From Pyrodictium abyssi (lineage in GTDB: Archaea; Thermoproteota; Thermoprotei_A; Sulfolobales; Pyrodictiaceae): a stretch of DNA of 32,000 nt. The translations under genes and the position numbers were made by a program. The DNA is taken from contig NZ_AP028907.1 of NCBI RefSeq assembly GCF_036323395.1, positions 1,560,001 to 1,592,000 of the forward strand. Reading direction: 5' to 3'. Positions 3,107-28,543 of this stretch are shown here, piece by piece (position 1 is the stretch's first letter; every line of letters starts with the position of its first letter). The notes beneath the pieces are model-generated. The model searched no databases. It was not told the origin of the DNA and worked only from the letters and a program-made list of their open reading frames with translations.

Positions 3107-3853
3107 TTGTATACAGAGATAGCAGCCATACTAGCGCTATTGGCATTCTCCCTCTATGATATAAAGACTAGAGAACTACCGGAGAAGCACGTCTACGCGG
3201 CTCTCGCCATAATGCTAATCCTCCGAGTAGCTGAGTACCGGCTATACGGATTGGACGTTCTCTTCCCTTTATGGGTATACATTGTCCTGGACGGCGTAAT
3301 CCTGGCAGCTACGGCAACTGTGGCAATACTGGGCTTCTTCGGCTGGGGCGACGTAGCGGTATTACTACTCATTACTATGGCTTCGCCTGTAGCCGAAGGT
3401 AACTGTATAATAATGCCACCGGCGCTAATGGTCCTCGTATACTATGTGCTGGCAAACGTAGCCATAATGGTGGCTAACCTGGTCGTAAACGTTACGCGCA
3501 ACATGCACGAACTCAGAAGGTTACCACTCAGGTACAGGCTAATATACGCGCTCATAGCACGTCCAGTTAATGTGCAGAGACTGCTAGATAAACCGGGCTG
3601 GTGGTACCCACTAAGCCTCTGCGGAAACTACACGGTAAAGTTCAACATATACCTAGACCCGGACGATATAGTGGAAGAGGTAAGAAAGGCTATACGAAAA
3701 GGATGCACATCACAAAGCGATACGGTATGGGTGACATACGGCATACCAGGAGTACCGCTATTCACCGCATCTTACATGCTGACGCTGCTAGTGGGCGACA
3801 AACCTCTGCTTAGCATGCTAGGAATCAGGTTAGACAGCATACTAGCCGGCTAG
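3107..3853 (+). CDS. Type IV prepilin/preflagellin peptidase-like membrane aspartyl protease (A24 family, PibD/FlaK-like)
   Basis: TTG start. Polytopic membrane protein with the two catalytic Asp contexts of A24 peptidases: LYDIKTRELP near the N-terminus and FFGWGDVAVLLL (GxGD-type). Confidence 0.7.
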   Translation: MYTEIAAILALLAFSLYDIKTRELPEKHVYAALAIMLILRVAEYRLYGLDVLFPLWVYIVLDGVILAATATVAILGFFGWGDVAVLLLITMASPVAEGNCIIMPPALMVLVYYVLANVAIMVANLVVNVTRNMHELRRLPLRYRLIYALIARPVNVQRLLDKPGWWYPLSLCGNYTVKFNIYLDPDDIVEEVRKAIRKGCTSQSDTVWVTYGIPGVPLFTASYMLTLLVGDKPLLSMLGIRLDSILAG

Positions 3854-3889
3854 AAAAAGATACAAGCATCGCGAAGCAGGGCAAAATCG

Positions 3890-4432
3890 ATGGGTGGACA
3901 CAGCACTATGGACAGTCACATTAACGTGCTCTACGCGCCATGGCGCTACAAGTACATAAAGTCAACCGTGGAGAGAGAGCCGTCAGAATGCATATTCTGC
4001 GCGGCGCCAAAAAAGAGCGACGATGAAGTCCTCATCCTGTACCGGGGCCGATATAACTACATAATAATGAACCTTTACCCCTATAACACAGGACACGTAA
4101 TGGTAATACCCTACCGGCATGTAGCCGACATAACAGAGCTAACTACAGAAGAGCTGACAGAAATGATGGATCTCGTGAAGCTGTCTGTAAAATTGATAAG
4201 ACAAGTTCTAAAGCCACACGGATTCAACATAGGCATGAATATAGGACGTATAGCAGGAGCAGGCGTAGACAAGCACATACACATACACGTCGTGCCACGC
4301 TGGAACGGCGATACCAACTTCATGCCAGTGATAGCCGGAGTAAAAGTGATATCACAAGACGTTAGAGAAACATACAAAGCCTTAAAAGAAGCACTAAAAA
4401 GCCAGAGCGGTTCCCAAGGAGCCATCGGCTAG
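3890..4432 (+). CDS. HIT (histidine triad) family nucleotide hydrolase/transferase
   Basis: Histidine triad HIHIHVVPR plus YNTGHVMVIPYRH. The start may instead be the ATG at 3908. Confidence 0.85.
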   Translation: MGGHSTMDSHINVLYAPWRYKYIKSTVEREPSECIFCAAPKKSDDEVLILYRGRYNYIIMNLYPYNTGHVMVIPYRHVADITELTTEELTEMMDLVKLSVKLIRQVLKPHGFNIGMNIGRIAGAGVDKHIHIHVVPRWNGDTNFMPVIAGVKVISQDVRETYKALKEALKSQSGSQGAIG

Positions 4433-4812
4433 CTTATGTACATCCTCAGCCTGTCTATAAAAGCTCTAATATCCGACAAGTGTGTCGCAACATCGTCTCT
4501 TATGCTACTAAGCCCGCGCAGCGTATGGAACTGTTCAACGCGCAGCCTATATGCCCTTACATACCTCGCGAGAAGCCTAGCCTTCTCAGCATAAGTATAT
4601 GCGTCACTTATGCCAATATGCCCAATGTTATCTAGATGCGATGCCAGATTGGATAGCGTATCCTCTATAGTTCCATTGAGCAGGTTGCTCTCAAAATAGA
4701 GCAACTGCCTAGCTATCTCGTCTAGGAGTGCTAGAGCGGAGTCGATCTCCCTACTAAGCTCCCTAACATCAATGCTTCTCTGCAATTCTAAAAACCATCT
4801 TCTTCCTCTCAT
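4429..4812 (-). CDS. Hypothetical all-helical protein (127 aa)
   Basis: ORF with host-like codon use. It overlaps the upstream wHTH-like gene by 44 nt in another frame. Confidence 0.5.
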   Translation of the reverse strand: MRGRRWFLELQRSIDVRELSREIDSALALLDEIARQLLYFESNLLNGTIEDTLSNLASHLDNIGHIGISDAYTYAEKARLLARYVRAYRLRVEQFHTLRGLSSIRDDVATHLSDIRAFIDRLRMYIS

Positions 4813-4996
4813 AGTCTGGCTCCCGTATAACTATACCACTTCTAATTAGTCCCGCTAATGCTTCTCGTACAGCCTTTTTCTGAGCATTAATACCCAAGTT
4901 TAACAGAGCCTTATGGATCTCCTCGAACGTTAACGCAGCTTTGCTCTGCGATAGCAGATCCACAAGGGCCTTCTCAATATCGTTCATGAGCGTCAC
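4769..4996 (-). CDS. Small winged-helix-like DNA-binding protein (72-75 aa)
   Basis: LTFEEIHKALLNLGINAQKKAVREALAGLIRSGIVI resembles a wHTH recognition helix plus wing. CTTTTAC/GTAAAAG TATA-like element at 5007-5014 lies about 25 nt upstream of ATG 4987, so the likely leaderless start is 4987. Confidence 0.55.
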   Translation of the reverse strand: MTLMNDIEKALVDLLSQSKAALTFEEIHKALLNLGINAQKKAVREALAGLIRSGIVIREPDYERKKMVFRIAEKH

Positions 4997-17289: not shown

Positions 17290-17369
17290 CCCTAGATAGG
17301 CCTCTTGCCGCCGGGCCAGCGGCCCGAGAGTCTCGCCTCATGTGCATTCGGCGTGTGTAGCTGTTTGGG

Positions 17370-17681: not shown

Positions 17682-18020
17682 GCCTTCTTGCTCCCCCGGC
17701 TCAGCGGCTCGGCGGGCTTATTTCAGCATTCGGTTCCGCTTGAACCCGGCTGGTATTAATTCGTGACCCAGGCTCCTGCCCGATAAGAGTCAACCAGGCC
17801 TGTGCCCTAGTTCAGCCTCGTGCTACGCGGCTTGTAGCTCTCTAAGCCTCTGTACCATGTAAGCAGCCCGTAGTACTGTAGACGGAACCTGGTTCGTTTT
17901 CTAGGCCACAGTGTATGTTTAGCAGATGTTATGGTATGTCCTAGAAGGATATTATTCTACATTTTCTATACAGCTTGACTGTTTAATAACTATGAAAACT
18001 AGTTTTAAATACTTCTACTA

Positions 18021-18323
18021 ATGGTGCGTCAGAAGCCGGTGCACGGTACGTTGTCTGCATCGACTCCCGTAGACCGTGAGGGCTACAAAAGAGCCTTCAC
18101 AGCAGCGACGTTAGCATTCTTCATAGCCTGGGCCATCATAGCTATCGGCTTCCACCTACCCGCCAAGAGCCTCTACGCCCCGCCCGGTAGCCCCGAGCGC
18201 ATCAACGGGGCTCCACTAAACTGGTGGATGATACAGATCAGCATCGGCCTCGGCGTCGTCCTCGCCTTCGTCTATGCTTTTGTGATAAACAGGCTCGACG
18301 AGAAGTTTGGGATAGAGGCCTAA
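18021..18323 (+). CDS. DUF4212-type small membrane subunit of a solute:sodium symporter
   Basis: Two TM helices and the C-terminal block NWWMIQISIGLGVVLAFVYAFVINRLDEKFG, as recalled for DUF4212. It sits 13 nt upstream of the permease. TTTAATAA TATA-like element at about 17981-17988. Confidence 0.7.
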   Translation: MVRQKPVHGTLSASTPVDREGYKRAFTAATLAFFIAWAIIAIGFHLPAKSLYAPPGSPERINGAPLNWWMIQISIGLGVVLAFVYAFVINRLDEKFGIEA

Positions 18324-18336
18324 GGGGTGGGACCGT

Positions 18337-20031
18337 ATGGACGTGATAGCGGTTTCATTCTTAATAGCCACGATAATAGCCTACATGCTCATAGCCTACC
18401 GTGCACGCGCAACAAGCACAGAAGAGTTCTACGTAGCCGGCCGTAAGGTATCACCAATCCGTAACGGTATGGCTACCGCGGCAGACTGGATGAGCGGTGC
18501 AAGCTTCATATCAATGGCCGGCGCGGTAGCCGCTCTCGGCTACGACGCAAGCGTCTTCCTAATAGGATGGAGCCTTAGCTACGTGCTACTAGCAATGCTC
18601 GTCGCGCCATTCCTACGCAGCTACGGCAAGTACACCATACCAGACTTCTTCGAGGACCGCTACTACAGCAAGAAGGCAAGGCTCTTCGCAGTCATAATGC
18701 TATACGTAGTATCGCTAACATACCTCACTGGCCAGCTACTAGGCGTAGGCATAGTGCTGTCCAGGGCCTTCGGCGTAGACGCCACCATAATGACCCTAAT
18801 AGCGCCGCTACTAGTGCTGCTCTACAGCAGCCTTGGCGGCATGAAGAGCATTACCTGGACACAAGTGGCACAGTACATAGTACTCATATCCGCATACTGG
18901 CTACCAATAGTGCTGATAAGCCACCTATGGAACCCGATACCACACATAGCCTACGGCCAGCACGTAGAGAAGGTAGACAACATAGTAATGGAGCTCAAGG
19001 GCCACGCGTGGACCGAGCCCTTCTGGCGTACCTACGCTAGCGGCACGGGTCAGCTCAACTGGCTACTAAGCACATTAGCGCTAATGCTAGGCACCATGGG
19101 CCTACCCCATGTGCTAATGAGGTTCTACACGGTGCCTAGCGTACGCGACGCACGCAAGAGCGTGGCATGGAGCCTCTTCTTCATAAGCCTGCTATACCTA
19201 ACAGCGCCAGTATACGCAGCGCTAGCAGGCGAGAAAGAGTACCAGCTATACGCTATGGTTAAGCAGCTCGACGGCCAGCCTATCGATGTCGTGAAGCAGG
19301 AGCTGATGAAGGAGCCCTGGGTAAAGAAGTGGATGGAGGCTGGCCTCATAAAGCTAGTTGACAAGAACGGCGACGGCATATTCCAGTACGGGAAGGACGT
19401 CTTCAGCATTCATAAGGACATAGCAGTGCTAGGCCTACCAGACATGTACGGTCTAGGCGCGGTGATAGCCTCAATAATACTAGTAGGCGGTATATCTGCT
19501 GCACTATCAACTGCTGACGGTCTAATACTGGCAATGACTACTGCGGCTACTCGCGACATCTACAAGTCCATAATCAACCCGCGCGCGACTGAAAAGAAGG
19601 AGCTAATGGTGGCAAGAATATCAATGGTAGGCATAGCCTTCATATCCGGTACACTAGCATACCTAATGGCCTCCAACCCGGTGATAAAGGCCTACATAGC
19701 CAAGACAGTAGCCTGGGCGTTCGCGTTCGCCGCGTCAACGCTAACGCCAGCGATGATACTAGGGCTGCACTGGAAGAGGGCCACCAAGGAGGGCGCTATC
19801 GCTGGTATGCTGGCGGGCCTGGCGGTAGCTGTACCCTACGTAGTCGGTGTGTCTCTGGGCTACATGGAGCCGGTGAGCATAGCGGGCCAGAAGATAGGCA
19901 CCATAGCATGGGGCGTGATAGGCTTCATAGTAAACATAGTAGTCAACGTAGTAGTATCGCTAATGACAAGCGAGCCTCCGAAGAAGGTACAGGAGCTTGT
20001 CGAGCAGATTAAGGTCCCAGTGAGAAAGTAA
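18337..20031 (+). CDS. Sodium:solute symporter family permease (ActP/VC_2705-like carboxylate permease)
   Basis: 564 aa with about 13 TM helices. SSS blocks include AADWMSGASFISMAG and GGMKSITWTQVAQY. GGGGTGG Shine-Dalgarno-like element upstream. Confidence 0.9.
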   Translation: MDVIAVSFLIATIIAYMLIAYRARATSTEEFYVAGRKVSPIRNGMATAADWMSGASFISMAGAVAALGYDASVFLIGWSLSYVLLAMLVAPFLRSYGKYTIPDFFEDRYYSKKARLFAVIMLYVVSLTYLTGQLLGVGIVLSRAFGVDATIMTLIAPLLVLLYSSLGGMKSITWTQVAQYIVLISAYWLPIVLISHLWNPIPHIAYGQHVEKVDNIVMELKGHAWTEPFWRTYASGTGQLNWLLSTLALMLGTMGLPHVLMRFYTVPSVRDARKSVAWSLFFISLLYLTAPVYAALAGEKEYQLYAMVKQLDGQPIDVVKQELMKEPWVKKWMEAGLIKLVDKNGDGIFQYGKDVFSIHKDIAVLGLPDMYGLGAVIASIILVGGISAALSTADGLILAMTTAATRDIYKSIINPRATEKKELMVARISMVGIAFISGTLAYLMASNPVIKAYIAKTVAWAFAFAASTLTPAMILGLHWKRATKEGAIAGMLAGLAVAVPYVVGVSLGYMEPVSIAGQKIGTIAWGVIGFIVNIVVNVVVSLMTSEPPKKVQELVEQIKVPVRK

Positions 20032-20048
20032 CGCCTGAGGGATCATTT

Positions 20049-21704
20049 ATGAGGGAGAACTCTGTTCCACGCGATATACTCATTTTTTTACAGAGTAAGG
20101 TGTTTCCTCATACCTCGCCTAGGCTTCTTGAGAGTCTGTTGCAGTGTAGCAGGATTATGCTTCTACAGGAAGGCGAGGAGCAGCGCAAGCCCGGGCTCTA
20201 CATAGTCTACAGTGGCTCTATCGCTGTAGACTCTCAGCTTCTCACTGTAGGTGACTATGTTGTCTCTGAGCATGGCGTTCGGGCGGTAGAGGAGACAATA
20301 GTTATATACGCTGACTACGAATGCGCTCGGCCAGTACTTACTCTTGGCGAGGAGGAGCCTTGCCTAGTAGGTGACCTTATCTACCGTGACCCCGTTGTTG
20401 TCGGCCCCGATATGCCCGTCATAGAAGCTGTGAAGAAAATGTACCGTGAAGGCGTATCGTCGATAATAGTAGTGGATGTGGATGGCAGGCCGTTGGGAAT
20501 ATTTACTGATACAGACTTGCGCCGCTTGGTGGCGCTGGGAGAGGACCTTTCTAGGCCGATATCAGCGTACATGACGCCTCAGCCGCTCTCCATAAAAGCT
20601 TCGGCTACGTGCATGGAAGCTGCGTTCGCGATGATGAACCGGTATGTTAAGCATATAGTGGTAGTTGACGATAGTGGTAGAGTTTCGGGGGTCGTTACTG
20701 TTCGCGACATAGCCTATGCTGAGGCTCTTGGCCCGCTCTACATGCTTCGGCGTATCCGGAGCGCCTCTAGTGTTGATGAGCTAGCGCTGCGCTACCGTGA
20801 GCTGGTATCGCTTCTCCGCCGTGAAGCGCGCCGTCTCCATCCCAGCGGTGGTGGCCGTGAAGCTGTCCATATGGTGCGTATGGCTAGCCTAGCTCTGCGT
20901 GGCGTTATGTCTAAGGCTGCAGAGCTAGCTGCTAGAGAGCTCGGCTTACCGGGTGATGGACTAGCTTATCTCTCTCTAGGCAGTAATGGTAGGCTTGAGC
21001 AGTTCCTAGCTAGCGATAGGGATACTATGCTAGTGTACTGGGGGGTAGACGAGCAGAGAGCACGTGTCTTTGCTGAGCGCGTAGAGGATATTCTTGACAG
21101 GATAGGGTTCCCCGGGTGTAGGCATGGCTATACATCGCGTCAGCTGCTCTATTCTCGGGACGAGTTGCTGGAGAAGTTAAGCTCTATGGCTAGGGACCTC
21201 ATGGATGAGAACATTGTATTGTTGAGTATGATGTTTGATGCTGTAGACGTATGGGGGCAGCACGGGACGGCGGAGTGGATTAGGAGGAGTATAGCCGAGC
21301 TCCTTTCGAGGTCGAGTAGCTATATTATGGGCGTTCTGCCGGTGTATCGGCCGAAGCTGGGTTTTGCTGGAAGGCTTCCCCGCGAACTGGACCTCAAAGC
21401 TCATGGGCTAGCACCAGTAGTTTACACGGTCAAAGCTTTTGCCTTAGCTGAGACTGTTTGGGAGCCGGTTAACACGCTTGACAGGTTAATGGCGCTAGTG
21501 GCTAAGGGCGTCGTGCCGAGCGACCTAGCTGCTGACGTTGCTGAGGCTTATCGGATACTATCCGCGTTCATGGTATGGTCGCAAGCTCTTCACGGGAGTA
21601 CTAGGATAGATACTAGCGAGCTTAGTGGATTCGAACGCTCTATACTCCGCTCGGCACTGCGCACAGTTCAACGCTTTGTTGATTATGCGCGAAGGAGGGG
21701 GTGA
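20049..21704 (+). CDS. Signal-sensing putative nucleotidyltransferase: cNMP-binding-like N-terminus + 2 CBS + DUF294 NTase + DUF294_C
   Basis: CBS pair (DPVVVGPDMPVIEAVKKMYREGVSSIIVVD... and MTPQPLSIKASATCMEAAFAMMNRYVKHIVVVD...). NTase core YLSLGSNGRLEQFLASDRDTMLVY (G-S...D-x-D). Helical C-terminal domain. Confidence 0.8.
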   Translation: MRENSVPRDILIFLQSKVFPHTSPRLLESLLQCSRIMLLQEGEEQRKPGLYIVYSGSIAVDSQLLTVGDYVVSEHGVRAVEETIVIYADYECARPVLTLGEEEPCLVGDLIYRDPVVVGPDMPVIEAVKKMYREGVSSIIVVDVDGRPLGIFTDTDLRRLVALGEDLSRPISAYMTPQPLSIKASATCMEAAFAMMNRYVKHIVVVDDSGRVSGVVTVRDIAYAEALGPLYMLRRIRSASSVDELALRYRELVSLLRREARRLHPSGGGREAVHMVRMASLALRGVMSKAAELAARELGLPGDGLAYLSLGSNGRLEQFLASDRDTMLVYWGVDEQRARVFAERVEDILDRIGFPGCRHGYTSRQLLYSRDELLEKLSSMARDLMDENIVLLSMMFDAVDVWGQHGTAEWIRRSIAELLSRSSSYIMGVLPVYRPKLGFAGRLPRELDLKAHGLAPVVYTVKAFALAETVWEPVNTLDRLMALVAKGVVPSDLAADVAEAYRILSAFMVWSQALHGSTRIDTSELSGFERSILRSALRTVQRFVDYARRRG

Positions 21705-22310
21705 TGTATAACGGGTGCTAAGGGGTATGCTGCTTTAGACATTGAGTCTACGTGTCTGGATGCCCGGAAATGTAGGATGGTCTCAGCTGCTGTTGTGCCT
21801 TTCACGGGCAATAGCTTGGAGCTATCCCGTGTCGTGTACTACTCTGAGCCCCCGGATGATGGTGTTAGAGGCTCTGCTCTTGTGCACGGTGTGACTAGGT
21901 CGTCTGGAGTTGTCGGCTCTTTTGGCCGGCTTGTGGGCGTTACGAGAGGCCGTATACTTGTAGTGTATGGGCACCATGACGTAGAGTTCTTGAGAGCTGA
22001 GGCTGCGAGGCGAGGGATAGAGATCGGGAAAGTGTGCTATGTGGATGTTCTCTCTTGGGCGCTTAGCGTTCCTAGTGCACATGATGAAGCTGTAAAGAGG
22101 GGGCGCTTCACACTTGATGACGCTCTTGCGGTGCTTATGGGTGTTGAGGTGCCCCGGCGGAGTTTCCACGACCCGGTCAGTGATGCTATACATGTGGCGT
22201 TGCTCTTTATGCATCTAGCTGAGAGGCTTGGAAATCCTCCTGTAAAGTGCTGTAGTGGGAGGGCTAGTTCTAAGCTCCGTCGTGCTCTTGCTAGGCTACT
22301 CAGACTATGA
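21704..22310 (+). CDS. DnaQ/RNase T-like DEDDh 3'-5' exonuclease with an interrupted 5' end (needs a +1 shift or a non-canonical start; possibly a pseudogene)
   Basis: Exo I AALDIESTCLD (21732-21764) lies upstream of the first in-frame ATG (21777). VHGVT, Exo II GHHDVEFL and Exo III HDPVSDAIHVALLF follow. ATG 21704 overlaps the upstream TGA but is in another frame and stops at TAA 21719-21721. Confidence 0.7.
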
Positions 22311-22569
22311 TAGGGGGTATTTGTTGCCGGCTTAAGCCCCTATACCCTGGTAGAGTTCTAATACTAGTAGAGCGTATAGCTTATAGTAATGGAGCCCTGG
22401 CTGCCCGCGGCCTCGATGGAGCCGCGGGCGGGCCCGGGGCGGTGACGGGTCGGGCTATATGCTGAGGCCTCTAGGCTCAATGAGGATGTGCCGCGGCTCG
22501 GCGGTCTATTCGACGGACGCGTTAGCTGCATGGTTTGTGTTGACATAGCTATATGGGGTGGATGTGTGA

Positions 22570-22821
22570 ATGACTGGTGAAAGGGTAGTAGCCTTCGTGT
22601 TAGCGGTTACCGAGGTGGGTAAGGAGTACGAGGTTGTGGAAAAGATTAGAGAGGTAGCAAGGCAGGCAGGTGTAGATGTAGAGGCCTATGTGGTCTACGG
22701 GGAGTATGATGTTGCGGCTAAGATAGTAGCTGATGGGCTCAAGAAGGTGGATCGTGCAGTCACTATGATAAGGACTCTGCCTGGTGTAATGCGCACTGTT
22801 ACGCTTATCGCGGCAGAGTAG
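22570..22821 (+). CDS. Stand-alone Lrp/AsnC-type ligand-binding (RAM) domain protein, 83 aa
   Basis: The beta-alpha-beta-beta-alpha-beta pattern VVAFVLAVTEVGKEYEVVEKIREV...YVVYGEYDVAAKIVADG...LPGVMRTVTLIA is typical of small AsnC_trans_reg-only proteins. Confidence 0.65.
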   Translation: MTGERVVAFVLAVTEVGKEYEVVEKIREVARQAGVDVEAYVVYGEYDVAAKIVADGLKKVDRAVTMIRTLPGVMRTVTLIAAE

Positions 22822-22860
22822 CTCCGAGGGAATCCCTCATAGTGTACAGCCGTTGCATCG

Positions 22861-22865
22861 TTTTT
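22861..22865 (+). terminator. Oligo-T tract (preceded by a GAGGG-AAT-CCCTC hairpin) after the RAM-domain gene
   Basis: Hairpin at 22826-22838 directly after the stop codon, then TTTTT at 22861-22865. Confidence 0.4.
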
Positions 22866-23052
22866 ATAGCCGGTCAGAGGCGGGTGCTGCTAGGCTCTTG
22901 TCCAGTGGAAGACTCACGGTATGCTGTGTGGTTTAGGCATCCATTTAATTTCTAGCCAGTATGTTGAATACAGCAAGCATCTAGGGTAGCCTGTAGCCTC
23001 GTATGAAGCTCATAACGGGTCTAACGACATACGTTGAGATTAGTTTGCGGCT

Positions 23053-23772
23053 GTGAGGGTTGGTATGGTGTTTGGAAGGATATCTTTTGGCGAGCATAGT
23101 GTTTGTGGAGTACGGTTTAGGCTAGAGCGGTATGGTGATAAGTGTAGTTATAGAAGGGGTAGTGTATCTGCTATTGTGCCGTGTGATGACGTGTACGTCT
23201 ATCCTGTAGCACCGGTATTTTATCCGGAGTATCTAACTAGCTATATCATGATGAGGCTTCGGGAGCCAGTTGTGATTAGAGATGGTGGTGAGGAGGAGTT
23301 CTGGGCTAGACTGGAGTTTGATGTCGCTGTAGTAGTGGGCTCTAGGGATACAGGCTATGAGGTTGTCGATGTGTTTCCGTCGAGTGGAGTGGGCAAGTAT
23401 GCGCTCTATGGCTCTCCTAGCCGCGGGATAATAGCCCGGTTTGTACCCGTAGAGGTTCTTTATGAGCCGTTGGAGGAGCCTTGTAAGGCTCTGGTGAGGG
23501 TTACTGTTCATAACCGATCTATTAGGTCTATCCGTTTGTCTAGGATAGTGTTTCCTGCGCAGCCGTTTAACCTATACTACGATGATGATGGCCGTGTTGT
23601 TGGCTCTAGTCTATATGTAGCGGTTACGAGCCCGTTTACGGCTGTTGTTTCCCTCCGTGAACCGAGTCTGCCGGACGGTTTTCGGAAGACTCCGAGGCTT
23701 CTAGGACAGAAGGGCGGGGTATCGGTGCAGACACGATGGAGCCAGAGCTTTGTCATGAGCTATGGCCTCTAG
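23053..23772 (+). CDS. Hypothetical protein (239 aa), possibly DUF432-like
   Basis: GTG start and very T3-rich codon use. The VYPVAPVFYPE...VVDVFPSSGVGKYALYGSPSRGIIARF pattern resembles my recollection of archaeal DUF432; this is unverified. It overlaps the convergent gene by 20 nt. Confidence 0.5.
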   Translation: MRVGMVFGRISFGEHSVCGVRFRLERYGDKCSYRRGSVSAIVPCDDVYVYPVAPVFYPEYLTSYIMMRLREPVVIRDGGEEEFWARLEFDVAVVVGSRDTGYEVVDVFPSSGVGKYALYGSPSRGIIARFVPVEVLYEPLEEPCKALVRVTVHNRSIRSIRLSRIVFPAQPFNLYYDDDGRVVGSSLYVAVTSPFTAVVSLREPSLPDGFRKTPRLLGQKGGVSVQTRWSQSFVMSYGL

Positions 23773-24298
23773 CTTCTTCGAGCATTATCAGGGTTATACC
23801 TGCCTCTTCTTTAGAGACTTTGGCTCCGTAGCTCTCTGCTATGCCCTCAACCATGCTTCTAATAGCTTCCTCGCTAGGCCTAGTAGGCGGTAGTAGGACT
23901 ATCTTGTCTTTCTCTCTTATAGCTATCCTTGAGTCCTCTAGTATAATGTCGAGAGCCTCTTCTAGGCTAACGCCTATGCTCCGGAGTAGTGCGCCTAGTT
24001 TTCTCCCCTCAAGCCGTACTTGTTCACCGGCTTCTTCGGGGTTGCAATTGTCTAGTAGGGATAGTGGTAGTAGTGCTACTCCTGCACGCCGCAGCTTACT
24101 GTATATGAGCGCTTTCCGGAGCACTATGGGCGCGAACGAGTTGTTGGTTTCAGCGTCTATGGCGCCGGTTAGTAGTGCTCTCATGTAAGCGGATATGGTC
24201 ATGCCGTGTCTAGCAGCTATATCCTTCACTAAGTCTGCGAGTTCGGAGTCTATCATTATCGGCCTTCGTTTCCGTGCAGCGCTATTCTCCTGCGGCAA
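23753..24298 (-). CDS. Ribbon-helix-helix-like N-terminal domain protein, paralog 1 (181 aa)
   Basis: RRPIMIDSELADLVKDIAARHGMTISAYMRALLTGAI fits the RHH strand-helix-helix pattern. The C-terminal KIVLLPPTRPSEEAIRSMVEGIAESYGAKV...ITLIMLE looks like a ferredoxin-like fold. Paralogous to the next gene. Confidence 0.6.
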   Translation of the reverse strand: MPQENSAARKRRPIMIDSELADLVKDIAARHGMTISAYMRALLTGAIDAETNNSFAPIVLRKALIYSKLRRAGVALLPLSLLDNCNPEEAGEQVRLEGRKLGALLRSIGVSLEEALDIILEDSRIAIREKDKIVLLPPTRPSEEAIRSMVEGIAESYGAKVSKEEAGITLIMLEEARGHSS

Positions 24299-24372
24299 AG
24301 CAGTCCAGGCCCAGTACCTAGGAATAGTAGAAGCTAGCCTTTATACTAGGAAGCATCCTTGGCGGCGAGGTG

Positions 24373-24969
24373 TCAAGTATTCCGCCTGTATTGGAGGACT
24401 ACTATCGAGCCGTAGTTCTCGACGGACTCTACCCTTAGCCCCCACGCTTCAAGTACTCTTGCCGATACAGCCTTGAGTAGCTCCAGCATGCCTTCGCCCG
24501 GCGGCTCAGCGAGCGTTATAACTATCTTCCCGGTATCGCCTTCGTTTATCTCGTCTATAGAGGCGCTGGGCGCGAAAAGATAGATTAGGTCTTTTACAGT
24601 GACGCTGTCCATGCTGCGTAGCTTGGCAGATACAGCTATAGAGGCAGCGAGCGATTCCACCTCCTTTATAAACTGGTCTCTCACTACAGTGTCAACAGAA
24701 TCCACTAGCTGCGCGAGTCCTCGTTGAGGAACTACTATACCTCCTAGCCGGTGCATATCGGTCAGTAGTACGGCTTCGGTGAAGATTGAGGAAATGTTAT
24801 CCTTACCGTGTAGGGTGCGTGTTGCGAAAGAGAGTATGAGCGTGACTAGCTCTGAGATAGTTAGCCCAGAGCGCTTAGCTATCATGGCTAGGTCGTTTAG
24901 CAGACTCTCGGGTATTGCTATAAGCTTCTTTGAGCCCTTGGGACCCGGCATCTGGAGGCCCTCTCCCAA
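24373..24969 (-). CDS. Ribbon-helix-helix-like N-terminal domain protein, paralog 2 (198 aa)
   Basis: KKLIAIPESLLNDLAMIAKRSGLTISELVTLILSFAT aligns with paralog 1 (11/33 identical, including the I-x-I, IA-x-R-x-G and TIS positions). Same overall architecture. Confidence 0.6.
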   Translation of the reverse strand: MGEGLQMPGPKGSKKLIAIPESLLNDLAMIAKRSGLTISELVTLILSFATRTLHGKDNISSIFTEAVLLTDMHRLGGIVVPQRGLAQLVDSVDTVVRDQFIKEVESLAASIAVSAKLRSMDSVTVKDLIYLFAPSASIDEINEGDTGKIVITLAEPPGEGMLELLKAVSARVLEAWGLRVESVENYGSIVVLQYRRNT

Positions 24970-25159
24970 GCTTTACGTGTACGTCGTAAGGGGGCCAGCG
25001 TGTTCCGGGATAGTAGTCCCGCTAGGCTAACAAAGTTAAACGCTAGTTATAGCTTCCCGTGAGCCCGGCTACAACGCGTGATTGTGCAAAAGGCTTCTTC
25101 CTTGTTTGTTGTTGGTGCTTGGTGCTCTGCACACAGTAAGTATAGAGATAGTATAGGCT

Positions 25160-25164
25160 AAAAA
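25160..25164 (-). terminator. Oligo-T tract downstream of the 656-aa protein gene
   Basis: TTTTT on the minus strand about 47 nt after the stop at 25211-25213. Confidence 0.35.
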
Positions 25165-25210
25165 GCGTCATGTATAGGGTGCGTTTACTAGTCGCTGCAT
25201 CGATGGATAT

Positions 25211-27181
25211 TCACGTTAGTATTAATGGCTTGGCTCCTTCCTCGAGAACCTCGTTTATAATACTCCTTGGGAATGGTACGGGGCTCGCAGTCAGGTCGAG
25301 TTCTATGTGTTCTCCGCTGACTGTAGTCGGGTTTACTTCGACTATTACCTGGGTTCCAGGCTCTACCTGGCAGAGTACTAGGCTGGGGTTCCTAAGCACT
25401 AGCGTCTCATTGTAGCTTATGGAGTAAGTTGTATAGTATGTGCTGCTCCAGAAGCGAGTCACTAGTGTTTTTGAGTATCCAAAGGTCTTATGGTCGAGTA
25501 GTATGCTCCCTACGGGTCTTGTCGATTTGCAGGGCGTTATCGTCATCGATGCTGGAGTTAGCAGCTCGTCCGCTTTTACCGTCTCCGTATGGCTATGGGC
25601 TATGTAGAGTAGGAACTCTGTACCTAGTGGTAGGTAGCCGCCGAGATAGTAGAGGAACTTGCTGATCCACCGTCCAGCCTTAGCTGCATAGCTGACCTCA
25701 ACTACTGCCACAGCAGCTGTAGCGGTTGGGCCTAGCCGCTTCACGAGACCTGGGCTTAGTCTGAGTGTTAGCACTATAGGGTGGTCTAGGCGTGTAGCTC
25801 GTAGTATGGTGGTTGTGTATAGTGCTTCCTGGGCTCGTGCCTGCCATGTCTGGTCTACACGGCTTGCAAGGCCTCGAGCGACAACTAGTTTGCCCGGGTC
25901 GTAGGCGTTAGGTGGGAGAAGGTGTAGCTTTACCGAGACGTAGGTAGCTGGCAGCGCCATATTCTGGACAACGTCTATCCCGCGGGGACAGTCGAATCCG
26001 CGGCACTGTAGGTGGACTTTAGCTGTGACAGGGTCTCGGGGTAATAGCAGTAATGTTATGGTTTCTTGCTGGGAGTCTCTTGTGATTAGGAAAGGTATGT
26101 ATATGCTTCCTGCTGCGCCTAGGGACTCCCAGCTAGCCCATGTATAGCCGTTGCCGCCTACCCTCCCGGGAACAGTGTAGCCTTCTCTCCAGTCCATGCT
26201 AGAGAATACCGGGACGCATGGGCTATAGATACTTTTGAATACGCATTTATCGTAATCTGTTGCGAGAAGCCCTGCTGCGAGTATCTTAGCTTTCAGCTTG
26301 TAGCCTACCCAGCTAGCAGAGTTAGCTACGTGTATTGCTGCCTCCCGGTGCTCTATTCTAAATAAGCCGCCCGCCAAAGGCTCTAGCACGCGACGGTATA
26401 CATAGAGCTCACTCTCGGCTGGCGGACAGCCGTAGCTGCAGCGTGCGCGCACGTAGCCCGTCTCTCCGTACTCGCGGCTATCGCGGACCGGCCATTCCGT
26501 TATAGTGTAGAGTCTTAGCCTCTCTGGGTCGACGTATGCTCCTGGTAGTGGGCCGTTGGCAGCTGCATAGAAGGGGTTAGCACCAGGTAGAAGAGGACCA
26601 GCAGCCCATACCGGCTGTAGCACCGGACCGTACTGGACGAGTAATACTTCTCTGACAGCTTCCTGCGTGACCTGTTCTGTTACAATTCCTGTAGTGTTGA
26701 GGCTAGTGAGGCATGAGGTGGAGTTCTGTAACAGTTCTTGCCCGTTAACTCGTGCTCCGTTTAGACATGGCTTGCTAGGGTCTAGCTCATACTGGTATAG
26801 CCATACGCCGCCGTTCTTGCCGATTACCACGAGTTCGACGAAGCCGCTACACGGTATATCGACGACAGCAGTGTTGTTGACATCGAAGAATCTAGAGTAT
26901 AGTAGCTTTCTCTCCCCGGCATTGTAGATCTCCACGGCCCAGGGCTTGAATCCGCTAGTTACTGGTTCGACCTTTAGTACAGCCTCTAGCCATCCCGTAG
27001 CATTGCACTGGCCTAGGGGCTCTAGCATCATCCGCGGAGGCACGGAGAACGCAGCAGCTCTTTCTGCTAGATCCCGGACTCCAGCAGCCCACTGTGATGC
27101 TGCTGCGGCGAGCACAGCCAGAGATATAACGGTCATAGAGGCTATAAGAGCGCTGCCTAGTAGGCTACCGTATCCCCTCAA
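25211..27181 (-). CDS. Large exported protein with a type IV pilin-like (class III) signal peptide, Cys- and sequon-rich (656 aa)
   Basis: TTG start; no other start is possible because an in-frame stop lies 21 codons upstream. N-terminus MRG/YGSLLGSALIASMTVISLAVLAAAA has a short basic n-region, a Gly, then a hydrophobic helix. At least five N-x-S/T sequons (NAT, NNT, NST, NTT, NET), many Cys, and no C-terminal TM. Confidence 0.7.
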   Translation of the reverse strand: MRGYGSLLGSALIASMTVISLAVLAAAASQWAAGVRDLAERAAAFSVPPRMMLEPLGQCNATGWLEAVLKVEPVTSGFKPWAVEIYNAGERKLLYSRFFDVNNTAVVDIPCSGFVELVVIGKNGGVWLYQYELDPSKPCLNGARVNGQELLQNSTSCLTSLNTTGIVTEQVTQEAVREVLLVQYGPVLQPVWAAGPLLPGANPFYAAANGPLPGAYVDPERLRLYTITEWPVRDSREYGETGYVRARCSYGCPPAESELYVYRRVLEPLAGGLFRIEHREAAIHVANSASWVGYKLKAKILAAGLLATDYDKCVFKSIYSPCVPVFSSMDWREGYTVPGRVGGNGYTWASWESLGAAGSIYIPFLITRDSQQETITLLLLPRDPVTAKVHLQCRGFDCPRGIDVVQNMALPATYVSVKLHLLPPNAYDPGKLVVARGLASRVDQTWQARAQEALYTTTILRATRLDHPIVLTLRLSPGLVKRLGPTATAAVAVVEVSYAAKAGRWISKFLYYLGGYLPLGTEFLLYIAHSHTETVKADELLTPASMTITPCKSTRPVGSILLDHKTFGYSKTLVTRFWSSTYYTTYSISYNETLVLRNPSLVLCQVEPGTQVIVEVNPTTVSGEHIELDLTASPVPFPRSIINEVLEEGAKPLILT

Positions 27182-27496
27182 CCCTGGCTCCCAAATGGAG
27201 TTACAGCATGCTGTGAGCCCGGCGTGCCCCGGCGCCGAAACTACCTACGTAGCGTGCTCGGCTGGTTGTTTGCGGATATTGGACCAGTGCTAGGCCTGCT
27301 GGTTTCCGGCTCTTTGCCCGTCTTCGGGGGATGAAGATAATAGGCACACTTCTAGGCTGATTACTGACAAGCCAAGCCTACAGCTGGTCTACAAGCAGGT
27401 TTCACACAAACTCCCTCGTAGCTCAAGCGTTGGACACGAGACGGCGCTCAAGCAGCTAACATGCTCTGTGGGCATGCCTCGCGCTGTACCGGGGTG

Positions 27497-28543
27497 CTAG
27501 AGGAGCCCCTTAGTAGCCAGTATGAGTACAACGAGCCCTATAATGGTCTGCATAGCGAGGATAACGGCTACCACTTCAGGCTCGCGGGCTGAGCCCTTTA
27601 GCCGCTTGAGCAGCTTTATCACAGCATGTGTTAGCGTGTATATTCCTTCCAGCGGCGAGTCGAGGGTGCCATCGGGCCTTGGCACACCGAAGTCCTCTAT
27701 CACGCCGGGCTTCCAGACACGGTGCATGTAGCCCCGTAGGTTGAGTAAGGCCTTGATGAAGTACAGTGTGAAGAGAGCTAGGCCGTATTTCTCCATGTTG
27801 CCGAGTATCACGAGGGCAGCGTAGTGTGCGCCGACGCCGTAGGTGAAAGCGTTCCCGGGGAACACCTTTGCGGGGTACCAGTTGTACCGGAGAAAGCCCA
27901 GCAACGCTGCCGCCATTACTAGCGAGGCCTGCAGCACTAGGTCCAGACCCTTTAGATATGCATAGGCTGCTGTGAAGAGCATGAGTAGTAGACCCATTCC
28001 GGCCTCGAGGCCGTTAAACCCAGCTATCATGTTGAATGCGTTGGCAGCGCCCAGCACGCCTAGCGGTACAGCTACTAGCGGATACGCAGCGCCTAGGTCC
28101 ACGGTGCCTAGTAGCGGTAGCGACAACGTAGACTGGCCAGCTTTTATCACTACTAGTGGCAGTGAAACAGGCGCCATGAAGGCTACCCGTTGCCAGCGTG
28201 GTAGGCCCCGCTTCCACCCAAGGATGTCGTCTATGAAGCCTAGGAGGCTAGCAAGGAGGAGCAGCGATACTAGAGCATACAGCTCGGCTGGATAGTACAC
28301 CTCCCCCTCTAGGTAGGTATAGAGAGCCTCGAGGACAAGTAGGCCGAAAGACGCAGCCACTACCGCCCAAATCCCGCCTGCTTCAGCCACCACGACTTTG
28401 CCAGGCTTGTTCATGTCCCGGCCTACTAGGCCCCGTCTCCTGGCTACACGGATCCATGCAGGCTCTATCAGAAGCACCAGGAAGAATGCCACAGCAGCAG
28501 ATGCCAGCGCGTACACGAGCTGGACTCGCTCCAAGGCGTTCAA
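27497..28543 (-). CDS. aglH: UDP-GlcNAc:dolichyl-phosphate GlcNAc-1-phosphate transferase (glycosyltransferase family 4, AglH/MraY-like)
   Basis: Polytopic membrane protein with FIDDILG, AANAFNMIAGFNGLEAG and VFPGNAFTY blocks typical of the MraY/WecA/AglH family. TTG start. Confidence 0.8.
   Translation of the reverse strand: MNALERVQLVYALASAAVAFFLVLLIEPAWIRVARRRGLVGRDMNKPGKVVVAEAGGIWAVVAASFGLLVLEALYTYLEGEVYYPAELYALVSLLLLASLLGFIDDILGWKRGLPRWQRVAFMAPVSLPLVVIKAGQSTLSLPLLGTVDLGAAYPLVAVPLGVLGAANAFNMIAGFNGLEAGMGLLLMLFTAAYAYLKGLDLVLQASLVMAAALLGFLRYNWYPAKVFPGNAFTYGVGAHYAALVILGNMEKYGLALFTLYFIKALLNLRGYMHRVWKPGVIEDFGVPRPDGTLDSPLEGIYTLTHAVIKLLKRLKGSAREPEVVAVILAMQTIIGLVVLILATKGLL

Follow-up and report, generated by a model that had tools for sequence, protein, structure and literature searches.

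Related gene clusters in bacteria and archaea

Gene clusters of the kind described here are already known from bacteria, where they are common. In Pseudomonas aeruginosa, PA3232-35 has the order DUF485-ActP-DUF294-exonuclease with a 4-nt overlap, and PA3232-PA3235 were co-induced ~16-fold on propionate (PMC9765439). A Paracoccus plasmid carries acs-DUF4212-SSS-DUF294-...-exonuclease. In 21 of 26 bacterial plasmid records (13 of 18 genera), a VC_2705-type permease is followed immediately by a DUF294 gene, which bears out the linkage of these families near acetate-utilisation genes proposed in the initial annotation. Several bacterial plasmid permeases occur without DUF294, and one actinobacterial-type DUF294 locus has an amino-acid permease as neighbour, the SSS permease and the exonuclease being absent. 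According to Price et al. (bioRxiv 10.1101/072470), a D-alanine/lactate transporter depends on DUF4212, which shows cofitness with the adjacent COG2905 gene; the authors speculate that symporter expression needs COG2905. Mutants of bacterial DUF294 genes display a fitness pattern like that of transporter mutants, an observation cited for the enabling step of the mechanism proposed below. The literature searched assigns no biochemical role to the DUF294/exonuclease pair, in agreement with the initial annotation.

The permease/small-subunit pair had been regarded as essentially bacterial. This view is outdated: haloarchaeal plasmids carry acs-DUF4212-VC_2705. Two Thermoproteales-type MAGs contain SSS / DUF294-exo-acs-AFOR and SSS / DUF294-exo, respectively. 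The Pyrodictium abyssi cluster is an archaeal copy of the bacterial arrangement, and its own exonuclease gene is damaged at the start.

Organization of the Pyrodictium abyssi cluster

The window, i.e. the whole stretch of 32,000 nt analysed, contains the cluster on the forward strand (Table 1), with its final stop codon at 22308-22310. Spacers of 13 and 17 nt separate the first three ORFs, in agreement with the packing and coordinates given initially. No terminator-like site was seen in these spacers, and Shine-Dalgarno sequences accompany the tight gene spacing.

Table 1. Sequence features of the P. abyssi cluster (positions within the window)
Feature	Position	Strand	Basis or remark
Tandem-HTH protein, 103 aa	17370..17681	-	Divergent from operon; Csa3/CasR-type HTH matches
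TATA-box-like element TTTTAAATA	18002..18010	+	Preceded by conserved AACTAG
Gene 1, DUF4212 / TIGR03647 small membrane subunit of symporter	18021..18323	+	Pfam PF13937, TIGR03647
Gene 2, VC_2705-family sodium:solute symporter, large subunit, 564 aa	18337..20031	+	TIGR03648, SSF
Gene 3, COG2905-type protein, 551 aa	20049..21704	+	Pfam, hhalign, AF2 model
CBS domain pair, residues 107-225	20367..20723	+	Pfam CBS, two stretches, 8.7e-27
Nucleotidyltransferase catalytic motif G311-S312-x10-D323-R-D325, GSNGRLEQFLASDRDTMLVY	20979..21023	+	Read from sequence
Anomalous junction	21701..21776	+	DUF294 TGA 21702-21704; ExoI stretch behind TGA without canonical start
Gene 4, DEDDh exonuclease open frame, 201 codons after TGA	21705..22310	+	Ortholog profile and fold
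Exonuclease catalytic codons	D12 21738-40, E14 21744-46, D92 21978-80, H155 22167-69, D160 22182-84	+	
Exonuclease peptide stretch YAALDIESTCLDAR			

Upstream of gene 1, the block AACTAGTTTTA(A/T)AT was identical in all five aligned loci, including the distant locus L004, and the TATA-box-like element is a likely candidate for the operon promoter. A divergent HTH gene (103-107 aa) is found at the same position in five loci of relatives (L001, L003, L004, L027, and L028); this position makes its product a candidate for regulating operon transcription.

Both symporter subunits were recognized by profiles above their cut-offs, in line with the initial assignment. Gene 1 matched Pfam PF13937 with 48 bits (cut-off 30; 1.6e-12) and TIGR03647 with 8.5e-09. 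Its start is probably TTG 18051 (90 aa) rather than ATG 18021, since the latter is unconserved in relatives and lies only 11 nt past the TATA box. Four of the five aligned loci keep the TTG, and gene calls in relatives give 90-91 aa. The permease scored 604 bits against TIGR03648 (cut-off 321) and 194 bits against SSF, and is preceded by a GGGGTG Shine-Dalgarno sequence 7 nt 5′ of the gene. Its identity is 67-98% inside Pyrodictiaceae and ~45% to proteins of Aquificota and Bacteroidota.

The DUF294 protein and the exonuclease

Gene 3 encodes (i) a shortened cNMP-like barrel (residues 1-100), (ii) a CBS pair, (iii) a DUF294 nucleotidyltransferase core (62 bits), and (iv) a DUF294_C helical domain (73 bits). 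Profile-profile alignment with bacterial homologs was collinear over residues 5-553 (hhalign, E = 1.7e-75). Conservation of the N-terminus in 23 orthologs begins at residue 5, which favours the 551-aa start over the public annotation of 515 aa. Pfam cNMP_binding did not match this region; the degenerate cNMP-like fold read there initially agrees with a collinear alignment, with deletions, to the bacterial cNMP domain and with a beta-barrel in the AF2 model (pLDDT 87). The two CBS modules and the GlnD/GlnE-like core were likewise recovered. In the model, the CBS pair resembles AMP- or SAM-bound CBS pairs (TM 0.8-0.9, normalised to target length) and is presumed to sense adenine nucleotides. G311, S312, D323, and D325 are identical across 23 archaeal orthologs and align with the conserved G/S/D/D columns of the bacterial alignment. 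The nucleotidyltransferase module is closest to DrrA (6yx5; TM 0.66, normalised to target length) and GlnE (3k7d/1v4a).

For gene 4, the DnaQ/RNase T-like family assignment held through ortholog profile and fold, while a Pfam RNase_T match was not obtained and NCBIfam matches were sub-threshold only. With RNase_T and cNMP_binding missing, the profile searches proposed for the four proteins returned DUF4212, SSF, CBS, DUF294, and DUF294_C. The ortholog-based profile matched the PolC-type exonuclease 2p1j (E = 1.4e-11) and also DnaQ in PDB. In the structure model (pLDDT 81.6), the fold matches RNase T and DnaQ, both at TM ~0.55, as well as Pol III epsilon. D12, E14, D92, H155, and D160 are identical in 10 archaeal orthologs.

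Disruption of the exonuclease 5′ end

The TGATG string at 21702-21706 had been taken for a stop/start overlap joining gene 3 to gene 4. This reading was rejected: ATG 21704 opens only a 5-codon ORF (MYNGC-stop). The ExoI motif YAALDIESTCLD (21726-21761; D-I-E at 21738-21746) lies in the DUF294 frame beyond the single TGA, and no ATG, GTG, or TTG occurs between this TGA and the motif, so no canonical start covers it. In another frame, a GTG/ATG-initiated mini-ORF terminates at TAA 21719-21721. The sole canonical ORF of gene 4 (21777-22310, 177 aa) starts 3′ of the ExoI motif.

A second Pyrodictium lineage ('SZUA-1523', identical in four assemblies) shares this layout, which was found in L006, L007, L008, and L028. 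Since P. abyssi and this lineage are diverged, the odd junction is no sequencing error. Ordinary exonuclease starts were present in eight other archaeal loci surveyed. L001, L002, and L027 have one additional base and a GTG start; the L001 group, the closest relative, thereby keeps ExoI intact behind a canonical start. P. abyssi and SZUA share characters against L001, which suggests that the odd junction is ancestral to all three.

The junction is either recoded or decaying. Substitutions were polarised per branch, with small counts. The P. abyssi exonuclease branch carries 7 synonymous and 11 nonsynonymous changes, in which no departure from neutral was detected (p = 0.15), compared with 13 and 4 on the sister L001 branch (Fisher p = 0.04) and 42 and 12 for DUF294 on the P. 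abyssi branch (p = 0.004). In P. abyssi, the 5′ end of the exonuclease gene is disrupted, and these comparisons show relaxed constraint on the gene along this branch. Simple decay is opposed by three observations: the 201-codon frame is uninterrupted in both odd-junction lineages; over a 17-codon stretch around ExoI, P. abyssi and SZUA are separated by 7 synonymous changes and 3 conservative ones (p = 0.003 vs neutrality); and purifying selection is strong on the branch to the second lineage (31 of 79 changes nonsynonymous, p = 3e-11).

Production of the full exonuclease by recoding or non-canonical initiation is the alternative, which we regard as rather doubtful. Possible routes are (i) translation past the DUF294 TGA into a ~753-aa nucleotidyltransferase-exonuclease fusion; (ii) a start at the TGA-overlapping GTG/ATG followed by a +1 shift at GGG-YGC-TAR; and (iii) a near-cognate start at ATA 21708, 7 nt behind the strong Shine-Dalgarno-like AGGAGGGGG(TGA), although to our knowledge ATA starts are undocumented in Thermoproteota. 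The shared layout, its possible ancestry, the conservation pattern of the ExoI segment at the protein level, and the intact motif in the L001 group speak for this alternative, as do the identical position of the mini-ORF stop in both odd lineages and the unchanged D12 and E14 across all orthologs. It is opposed by the relaxed constraint in P. abyssi and by the homologs: the 109 retrieved from 1.84 billion representative proteins are all 100-430 aa in length, with no long fusion among them. Inspection by eye found no slippery motif, and the RNA showed neither a conserved nor an unusually stable structure (z = -1.5, +2.0, 0.0). Furthermore, both odd lineages have a start available at codon 25: ATG in P. 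abyssi and, in SZUA, a TTG that follows a perfect GGAGGTG arisen by a K-to-R change. Most likely, translation of the P. abyssi gene now begins at ATG 21777 and yields a product without ExoI, or else full-length protein is made only in traces.

Inheritance of the cluster

The initial annotation had suggested a mobile unit, a model by which the four genes came from bacteria and a ligand-gated nucleotidyl writer and an exonuclease eraser work on either a nucleotide-derived signal or a nucleotidylated target through which carboxylate uptake is controlled. Mobility of the genes is contradicted by several findings. The cluster is syntenic throughout Pyrodictiaceae, and relatives down to 48% DUF294 identity share the slot OFOR-GNAT-(PK)-HTH / cassette / AsnC-like-DUF432. 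Archaeal DUF294 proteins form a single clade in 100 of 100 bootstraps, separate from the 15 bacterial sequences sampled. The nearest bacterial homologs reach only ~45% (permease) and ~30% (DUF294) identity, and Pfam matches of the genes called in L001 included no integrase or mobile-element family. From synteny and the single clade, the cluster is not recently mobile.

The change in codon use at the DUF294 gene, which had counted in favour of mobility, is real: AT3 skew moves from +0.54 to -0.32. It splits the cassette, runs ~8 kb onward to ~28.5 kb across genes of both strands, and recurs in relatives with saturated synonymous sites; it is therefore a regional compositional feature and no mark of import. 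The region is best explained as an operon passed down vertically within P. abyssi and its family.

Possible function of the nucleotidyltransferase/exonuclease pair

As a functional proposal, the writer/eraser pair draws on the catalytic residues retained in both enzymes, on the adjacency or translational coupling of the two genes in bacteria and archaea, and on the bacterial genetic tie to the transporter. Against it, messenger-synthase-like matches were absent from the top 50 fold matches, and the supposed eraser gene is damaged in P. abyssi. Known de-AMPylases have other folds, and no DEDDh nuclease is known to us to remove a protein-linked NMP. Together with its mobile origin, we consider this proposal very improbable.

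Tailing of the operon mRNA or of a small RNA/tRNA by the nucleotidyltransferase, with trimming by the exonuclease, would place the symporter under post-transcriptional, adenylate-charge-dependent control. The polymerase-beta superfamily contains CCA-adding enzymes and poly(A) polymerases, and the exonuclease fold is matched best by RNase T, an RNA 3′-end trimmer. However, within its top 50 matches the nucleotidyltransferase with its helical module resembled protein-modifying GlnE and DrrA rather than RNA nucleotidyltransferases, DUF294_C is placed in one group with the GlnD and GlnE C-terminal domains (PMC3710099), and an RNA element was not found. RNA tailing appears unlikely. Fold similarity does not separate protein, RNA, and small nucleotide as target classes.

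The best explanation overall, which we consider moderately probable, is an inherited symporter operon with a putatively CBS-gated nucleotidyltransferase and a partner exonuclease gene whose 5′ end is disrupted. In this operon, genes 1 and 2 would form a two-subunit cation-coupled monocarboxylate symporter. The CBS pair would read the adenylate (AMP/ATP) state and gate the nucleotidyltransferase, and the exonuclease would act alongside this enzyme on a phosphodiester-linked nucleotide end. By nucleotidylylating a macromolecular target, the nucleotidyltransferase may enable expression or activity of the symporter.

Symporter genes and organization of the cassette

The initial annotation had described a tightly packed cassette of four genes on one strand, and its coordinates, the 13-nt and 17-nt spacers, and the TGATG string were all found in the window. 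Profile searches confirmed the families named for the first three genes, returning DUF4212/TIGR03647 for the first, SSF and TIGR03648 for the second, and two CBS modules, DUF294, and DUF294_C for the third. The permease scored 604 bits against TIGR03648 (cut-off 320.75), covering model positions 2-547 of 547. The small subunit, whose gene lies directly upstream of the permease gene with a gap of 13 nt, scored 48 bits against PF13937 (cut-off 30) and 35.6 bits against TIGR03647 (cut-off 26.05). As in the two-subunit symporters that TIGR03647 and TIGR03648 describe, both curated cut-offs were exceeded and the small gene directly precedes the large one; however, the permease is only 42-46% identical to its bacterial counterparts. 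Outside the Pyrodictiaceae, two matches at 47-51% came first, and the next, at about 45%, included Aquificota and Bacteroidota. The permease can be placed in the VC_2705 family (TIGR03648), for which cation-coupled, small-subunit-dependent monocarboxylate transport is predicted from bacterial genetics.

Shine-Dalgarno-like GGGGTG and GAGGGATC precede the internal genes at suitable spacing. Upstream of the cassette, a TATA-like box was recognized at 18002-18010 (see table), with transcription predicted to start near 18032. The aligned loci do not share the ATG at 18021, but four of the five keep a TTG at 18051, so the small subunit probably comprises 90 aa and its mRNA is probably leadered. A scan for sigma-70 promoters and terminators gave counts at the level of shuffled sequence and is uninformative for an archaeon.

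Positions of the cassette genes and of associated features in the window
Feature	Position	Strand	Length	Remark
DUF4212 small subunit	18021-18323	(+)		
VC_2705-type SSS permease	18337-20031	(+)		
DUF294 protein	20049-21704	(+)		
Exonuclease frame	21705-22310	(+)		
TATA-like box and small-subunit start	18002-18053			Box kept in five aligned loci
DUF294 public annotation	20049-20156			Deposited as 515 aa, start Met37
Exonuclease-frame stretch before ATG 21777	21705-21776	(+)		Would encode peptide GYAALDIESTCLDAR
Exonuclease public annotation	21777-21833			RefSeq 158 aa, GTG at 21834; looks mis-started
Compositional block	20049-28543, edges near 20040 and 28580		~8.5 kb	Third-position composition

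The DUF294 nucleotidyltransferase

The third protein matched DUF294 (PF03445) with 62.2 bits (gathering threshold 21), DUF294_C (PF10335) with 73.2 bits (threshold 22.5), and the tandem CBS pair in two stretches with 93.6 bits. The C-terminal domains of GlnD and GlnE have been placed in one group with DUF294_C (PMC3710099). The nucleotidyltransferase motif quoted in the initial annotation was recovered as G311-S312-x10-D323-R-D325, which fits the polymerase-beta-type pattern G-[GS]-x9-13-D-x-[DE]; none of the residues G311, S312, D323, and D325 varies among 23 archaeal orthologs. In structure comparisons, the closest matches of the nucleotidyltransferase module were DrrA and GlnE, both protein AMPylases, and the CBS pair resembled pairs binding AMP and SAM. 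With GlnE, GlnD, and DrrA the DUF294 protein shares a polymerase-beta core, a helical substrate-binding domain, and the G-S...D-x-D motif; it differs from them in its sensors (a CBS pair and a cNMP-like barrel) and has no detectable sequence match to them in the PDB.

The degenerate cNMP-binding-like N-terminus proposed earlier drew mixed evidence. Pfam PF00027 did not match the window protein and matched one of seven orthologs, weakly (E = 0.067). Profile-profile comparison, on the other hand, aligned residues 5-553 collinearly with bacterial homologs bearing PF00027 (E = 1.7e-75). In this alignment the bacterial cNMP domain pairs with the first 100 residues, which have deletions in the phosphate-binding region, and the AF2 model (pLDDT 87) displays a small beta-barrel at the N-terminus.

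The protein is identical over 515 of 515 residues to BES82150.1 (PABY_17170) of P. abyssi. The deposited 515-aa start looks wrong because residues 5-36 are conserved in 23 orthologs. Exact-sequence look-ups returned no record for the window DUF294 protein, the P. occultum protein, or the Pyrofollis protein.

Identity of the exonuclease

The 201-codon exonuclease frame had no match in Pfam, and the best of the NCBIfam exonuclease models reached 32 bits (cut-off 189). A profile of 10 archaeal orthologs retrieved the PolC-type exonuclease domain 2p1j (E = 1.4e-11) and DnaQ (E = 1e-05), and the DEDDh model of PADLOC matched the exonuclease at 2.1e-08. The residues of the ExoI D-x-E, ExoII D, and ExoIII H-x4-D motifs (D12, E14, D92, H155, and D160) are invariant in the 10 orthologs, and the structure model (pLDDT 81.6) matched RNase T, DnaQ, and Pol III epsilon, with RNase T closest. 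Ortholog profile, catalytic residues, and fold therefore support the earlier assignment of the fourth gene to the DnaQ/RNase T-like family. Compared with RNase T, DnaQ/Pol III epsilon, and the PolC exonuclease, the fold is the same and the D-E-D-H-D residues all lie in the open frame; the cassette enzyme is, however, very divergent, has DUF294 and not a polymerase as its constant partner, and has its first two catalytic residues outside any canonical ORF in P. abyssi. The downstream ORF matches WP_338249196.1. Altogether, three public gene starts at this locus look wrong.

A role in anti-phage defence was considered and set aside: PADLOC gave no match for DUF294, and otherwise only generic DEDDh and HTH domain matches.

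The DUF294/exonuclease junction

The TGATG string had been taken as a stop/start overlap, but the ATG at 21704 reads MYNGC-stop and does not start the exonuclease. The first ATG, GTG, or TTG in the exonuclease frame is the ATG at 21777, downstream of ExoI (21738-21746). The ExoI motif YAALDIESTCLD, which carries D12 and E14, lies in the DUF294 frame beyond the single TGA (21702-21704). As read from the sequence, the gene as encoded here is without a canonical route to the catalytic N-terminus of the exonuclease.

Relatives have ordinary junctions. The P. delaneyi-type exonuclease starts with ATG in a 17-nt overlap with DUF294, three further Pyrodictiaceae-type lineages use ATG or a GTGA overlap, a Hyperthermus MAG uses GTG, and two Thermoproteales-type MAGs have an ATG overlapping DUF294. 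In the closest relatives (L001, L002, and L027; DUF294 96% identical to that of the window), one extra base is present and a GTG start lies 10 nt past the TGA. The layout of the window recurs in a second lineage (DUF294 91% identical), which comprises the 'P. delaneyi SZUA-1523' MAG and three JGI contigs. For this lineage sequencing error is excluded, since the four assemblies are identical over ~2 kb; for the P. abyssi junction, represented by a single record, it is excluded less firmly and not fully. Both lineages have a mini-ORF that begins at a GTG(ATG) overlapping the TGA and ends, with TAA or TAG, at an identical position; the exonuclease frame is +1 relative to it. Two metagenome scans with the exonuclease added no close relatives: one yielded no locus and the other two loci at 37-38% identity, one of them the locus L005.

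The G-run before the DUF294 stop varies between near-identical strains (4 vs 5 G; 4647-4652 in L027, 9647-9653 in L001). This length change alters the DUF294 C-terminus (RRRG vs RRRGDV) as well as the frame relation of the DUF294 and exonuclease genes.

Two states of the P. abyssi exonuclease have to be weighed, production by recoding or non-standard initiation and truncation or decay. That the same junction layout occurs in two diverged lineages speaks for production. Along the long branch to the second lineage, the exonuclease has been under strong purifying selection (p = 3e-11), and within the 17 codons of the ExoI segment the two lineages differ by seven synonymous and three conservative changes, a pattern that departs from neutrality (p = 0.003). 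On the P. abyssi branch itself, however, the exonuclease acquired seven synonymous and 11 nonsynonymous changes, which is compatible with neutrality, as against 13 and four on the L001 branch (p = 0.04) and 42 and 12 for DUF294 on the P. abyssi branch (p = 0.004). Codon 25 is ATG in the window; the second lineage has TTG there, with a perfect GGAGGTG ahead of it, and ATA occurs where there is an upstream GTG. Moreover, natural nucleotidyltransferase-exonuclease fusions were absent from all 109 homologs in a full HMM search, no significant or shared RNA fold was found at the junction, and no recognised slippery sequence was seen there by inspection. A -1 frameshift from the upstream ATG at 21686, the homolog of the start used in P. 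delaneyi, was also rejected by inspection: the donor ORF extends only to 21710, and a shift into the exonuclease frame before 21702 would run into the TGA. Taken together, we regard truncation or decay as the probable state of the P. abyssi exonuclease, and its production by recoding or non-standard initiation as a serious though less likely alternative.

Synteny and inheritance

Every recovered Pyrodictiaceae locus keeps the same order: OFOR alpha/beta, GNAT, (pyruvate kinase), a divergent HTH gene, the four cassette genes, an AsnC-like gene, and DUF432. This synteny holds down to 48% DUF294 identity. Between the window and its P. occultum or P. delaneyi orthologs, identity is 91% for the permease (P. 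occultum), 74-75% for DUF294, and 58-59% for the exonuclease; the three genes have evolved at different rates. In two Thermoproteales-type MAGs the DUF294-exonuclease pair adjoins an SSS permease, and in one of them (L013) the pair is followed by acetyl-CoA synthetase (acs) and aldehyde:ferredoxin oxidoreductase. By neighbour-joining, the archaeal DUF294 proteins formed one clade against 15 sampled bacterial sequences (100 of 100 bootstraps). The cassette had been suggested to be a mobile unit. Its constant locus in all sampled Pyrodictiaceae, the single archaeal clade, and the low best bacterial identity (~45% for the permease, ~31% for DUF294) do not fit a recently mobile unit; an ancient inter-domain transfer is possible.

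Several features of the neighbourhood were also noted. The pyruvate kinase gene between GNAT and HTH is intact in the distant relative L004 (481 aa; 3494-4939), broken into three fragments in L003, the P. delaneyi-type contig (2612-3780), and absent from P. abyssi (window 17290-17369); its loss appears to be under way. After the cassette come a stand-alone AsnC-type ligand-binding domain protein of 83 aa lacking an HTH (22570-22821) and a DUF432 protein (23053-23772). Both genes follow it in every Pyrodictiaceae relative, and their products may belong to its functional neighbourhood. Two adjacent genes on the reverse strand (23753-24298 and 24373-24969; 181 and 198 aa) are kept in relatives; their N-termini, read by eye, look similar and ribbon-helix-helix-like, and the two are possibly paralogs. 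A 1.7-kb contig of a Hydrogenothermaceae MAG (L016; DTZN01000017.1) encodes part of a DUF294 protein of archaeal type that shares 45% identity with the window protein; mis-binning of an archaeal contig is a likelier explanation than gene transfer into Aquificota.

A compositional block

Atypical codon use from the DUF294 gene onward had been read as a sign of a mobile unit. The shift itself is real: third-position AT skew changes from +0.54 in the permease to -0.32 in DUF294 and -0.48 in the exonuclease, and GC3 from 0.64 to 0.53 and 0.48. It opens a block whose left edge is the permease/DUF294 boundary and in which the third positions of the + strand are T- and G-rich in genes of either orientation, with A-rich flanks. 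GC3 is ~0.48-0.55 over 20049-27181, against 0.60-0.64 in the flanks, and 0.64 in the last gene of the block (27497-28543). L001, P. delaneyi, and L004 show the permease/DUF294 contrast as well, even though their synonymous sites have diverged to saturation. Because the shift splits the cassette and has been maintained over time, it is not the scar of an import. A replication-type strand bias would account well for the switch in the window, but does not fit the distant relative L004.

Comparison with bacterial clusters

Among plasmid records with a full-length VC_2705-type permease, DUF294 lies directly downstream in 21 of 26 (13 of 18 genera), which upholds the bacterial linkage described in the initial annotation. 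Nearby acetate-utilisation genes are found too: acs heads the cluster of Paracoccus denitrificans plasmid 1 (PDEN_RS22665-22695; acs-DUF4212-SSS-DUF294-hyp-RR-exonuclease), and that of Shinella pShin-06 is similar. In P. aeruginosa, PA3232-PA3235 encode DUF485-ActP-DUF294-exonuclease with a 4-nt overlap, and in Vibrio penaeicida DUF294 and exonuclease overlap by 1 nt. Some permeases lack the pair and some DUF294 genes adjoin other transporters. Haloarchaeal plasmids carry acs-DUF4212-VC_2705 without the pair, so the symporter genes, previously described as essentially bacterial, are not confined to bacteria.

The P. abyssi cassette resembles the bacterial acetate/monocarboxylate clusters in its gene families and their order (small subunit, SSS permease, DUF294, exonuclease), its single strand, and its short or overlapping junctions. 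Whereas acs is often a neighbour in bacteria, none adjoins the P. abyssi cassette; there is no CrbS/R-type two-component system in P. abyssi, the conserved neighbour being a small HTH protein. Further differences are the hyperthermophilic archaeal host, a cNMP domain that is shortened and escapes detection by Pfam, and an exonuclease that, at ~200 aa, lacks the ~40-aa N-terminal extension of the bacterial enzymes and, in P. abyssi, a canonical start. The cluster was correctly recognised in the initial annotation and is of a known type, commonplace in bacteria, newly placed in Thermoproteota and with one misread gene boundary.

Functional data come from bacteria. Mutant fitness shows a role of DUF4212 + VC_2705 symporters in the use of D-alanine and D,L-lactate in Pseudomonas stutzeri and Shewanella; the D-alanine/lactate transporter requires DUF4212, which is cofit with the adjacent COG2905 gene, and the authors speculate that expression of the symporter needs COG2905 (Price et al., 10.1101/072470). 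PA3232-35 are co-induced on propionate, and PA3234 is under MxtR/ErdR control (PMC9765439, PMC5436829). A literature search found no biochemical study of the DUF294/exonuclease pair, in agreement with the initial annotation.

Proposed role of the pair

In the best-supported working model, DUF294 would be an adenylate-sensing nucleotidyltransferase exerting positive control on symporter output, and the exonuclease would act on a nucleotide 3' end; the target may be a protein, an RNA 3' end, or a small nucleotide. A more far-reaching version would have the two proteins form one adenylate-gated pair from Proteobacteria to hyperthermophilic Thermoproteota, writing and trimming a nucleotide tail on a macromolecule by which the output of the carboxylate symporter is controlled, and a partnership so tight that it has the exonuclease of two Pyrodictium lineages arising from translation of the nucleotidyltransferase (TGA read-through, +1 shift, or non-standard re-initiation). 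As a whole, we consider this version improbable. If true, the exonuclease recoding in these lineages would be a rare case of natural recoding in Thermoproteota.

The pair occurs widely beside acetate and monocarboxylate transporters, with which it is co-regulated. The archaeal version is monophyletic and syntenic, which shows an association of ancient origin that does not depend on bacterial two-component control, and its thermostable orthologs are suited to structural and enzymatic work. The misread DUF294/exonuclease boundary hides a small but real puzzle, recoding or tolerated loss in a crenarchaeon, and either outcome would help to tell whether the pair can do without the exonuclease.
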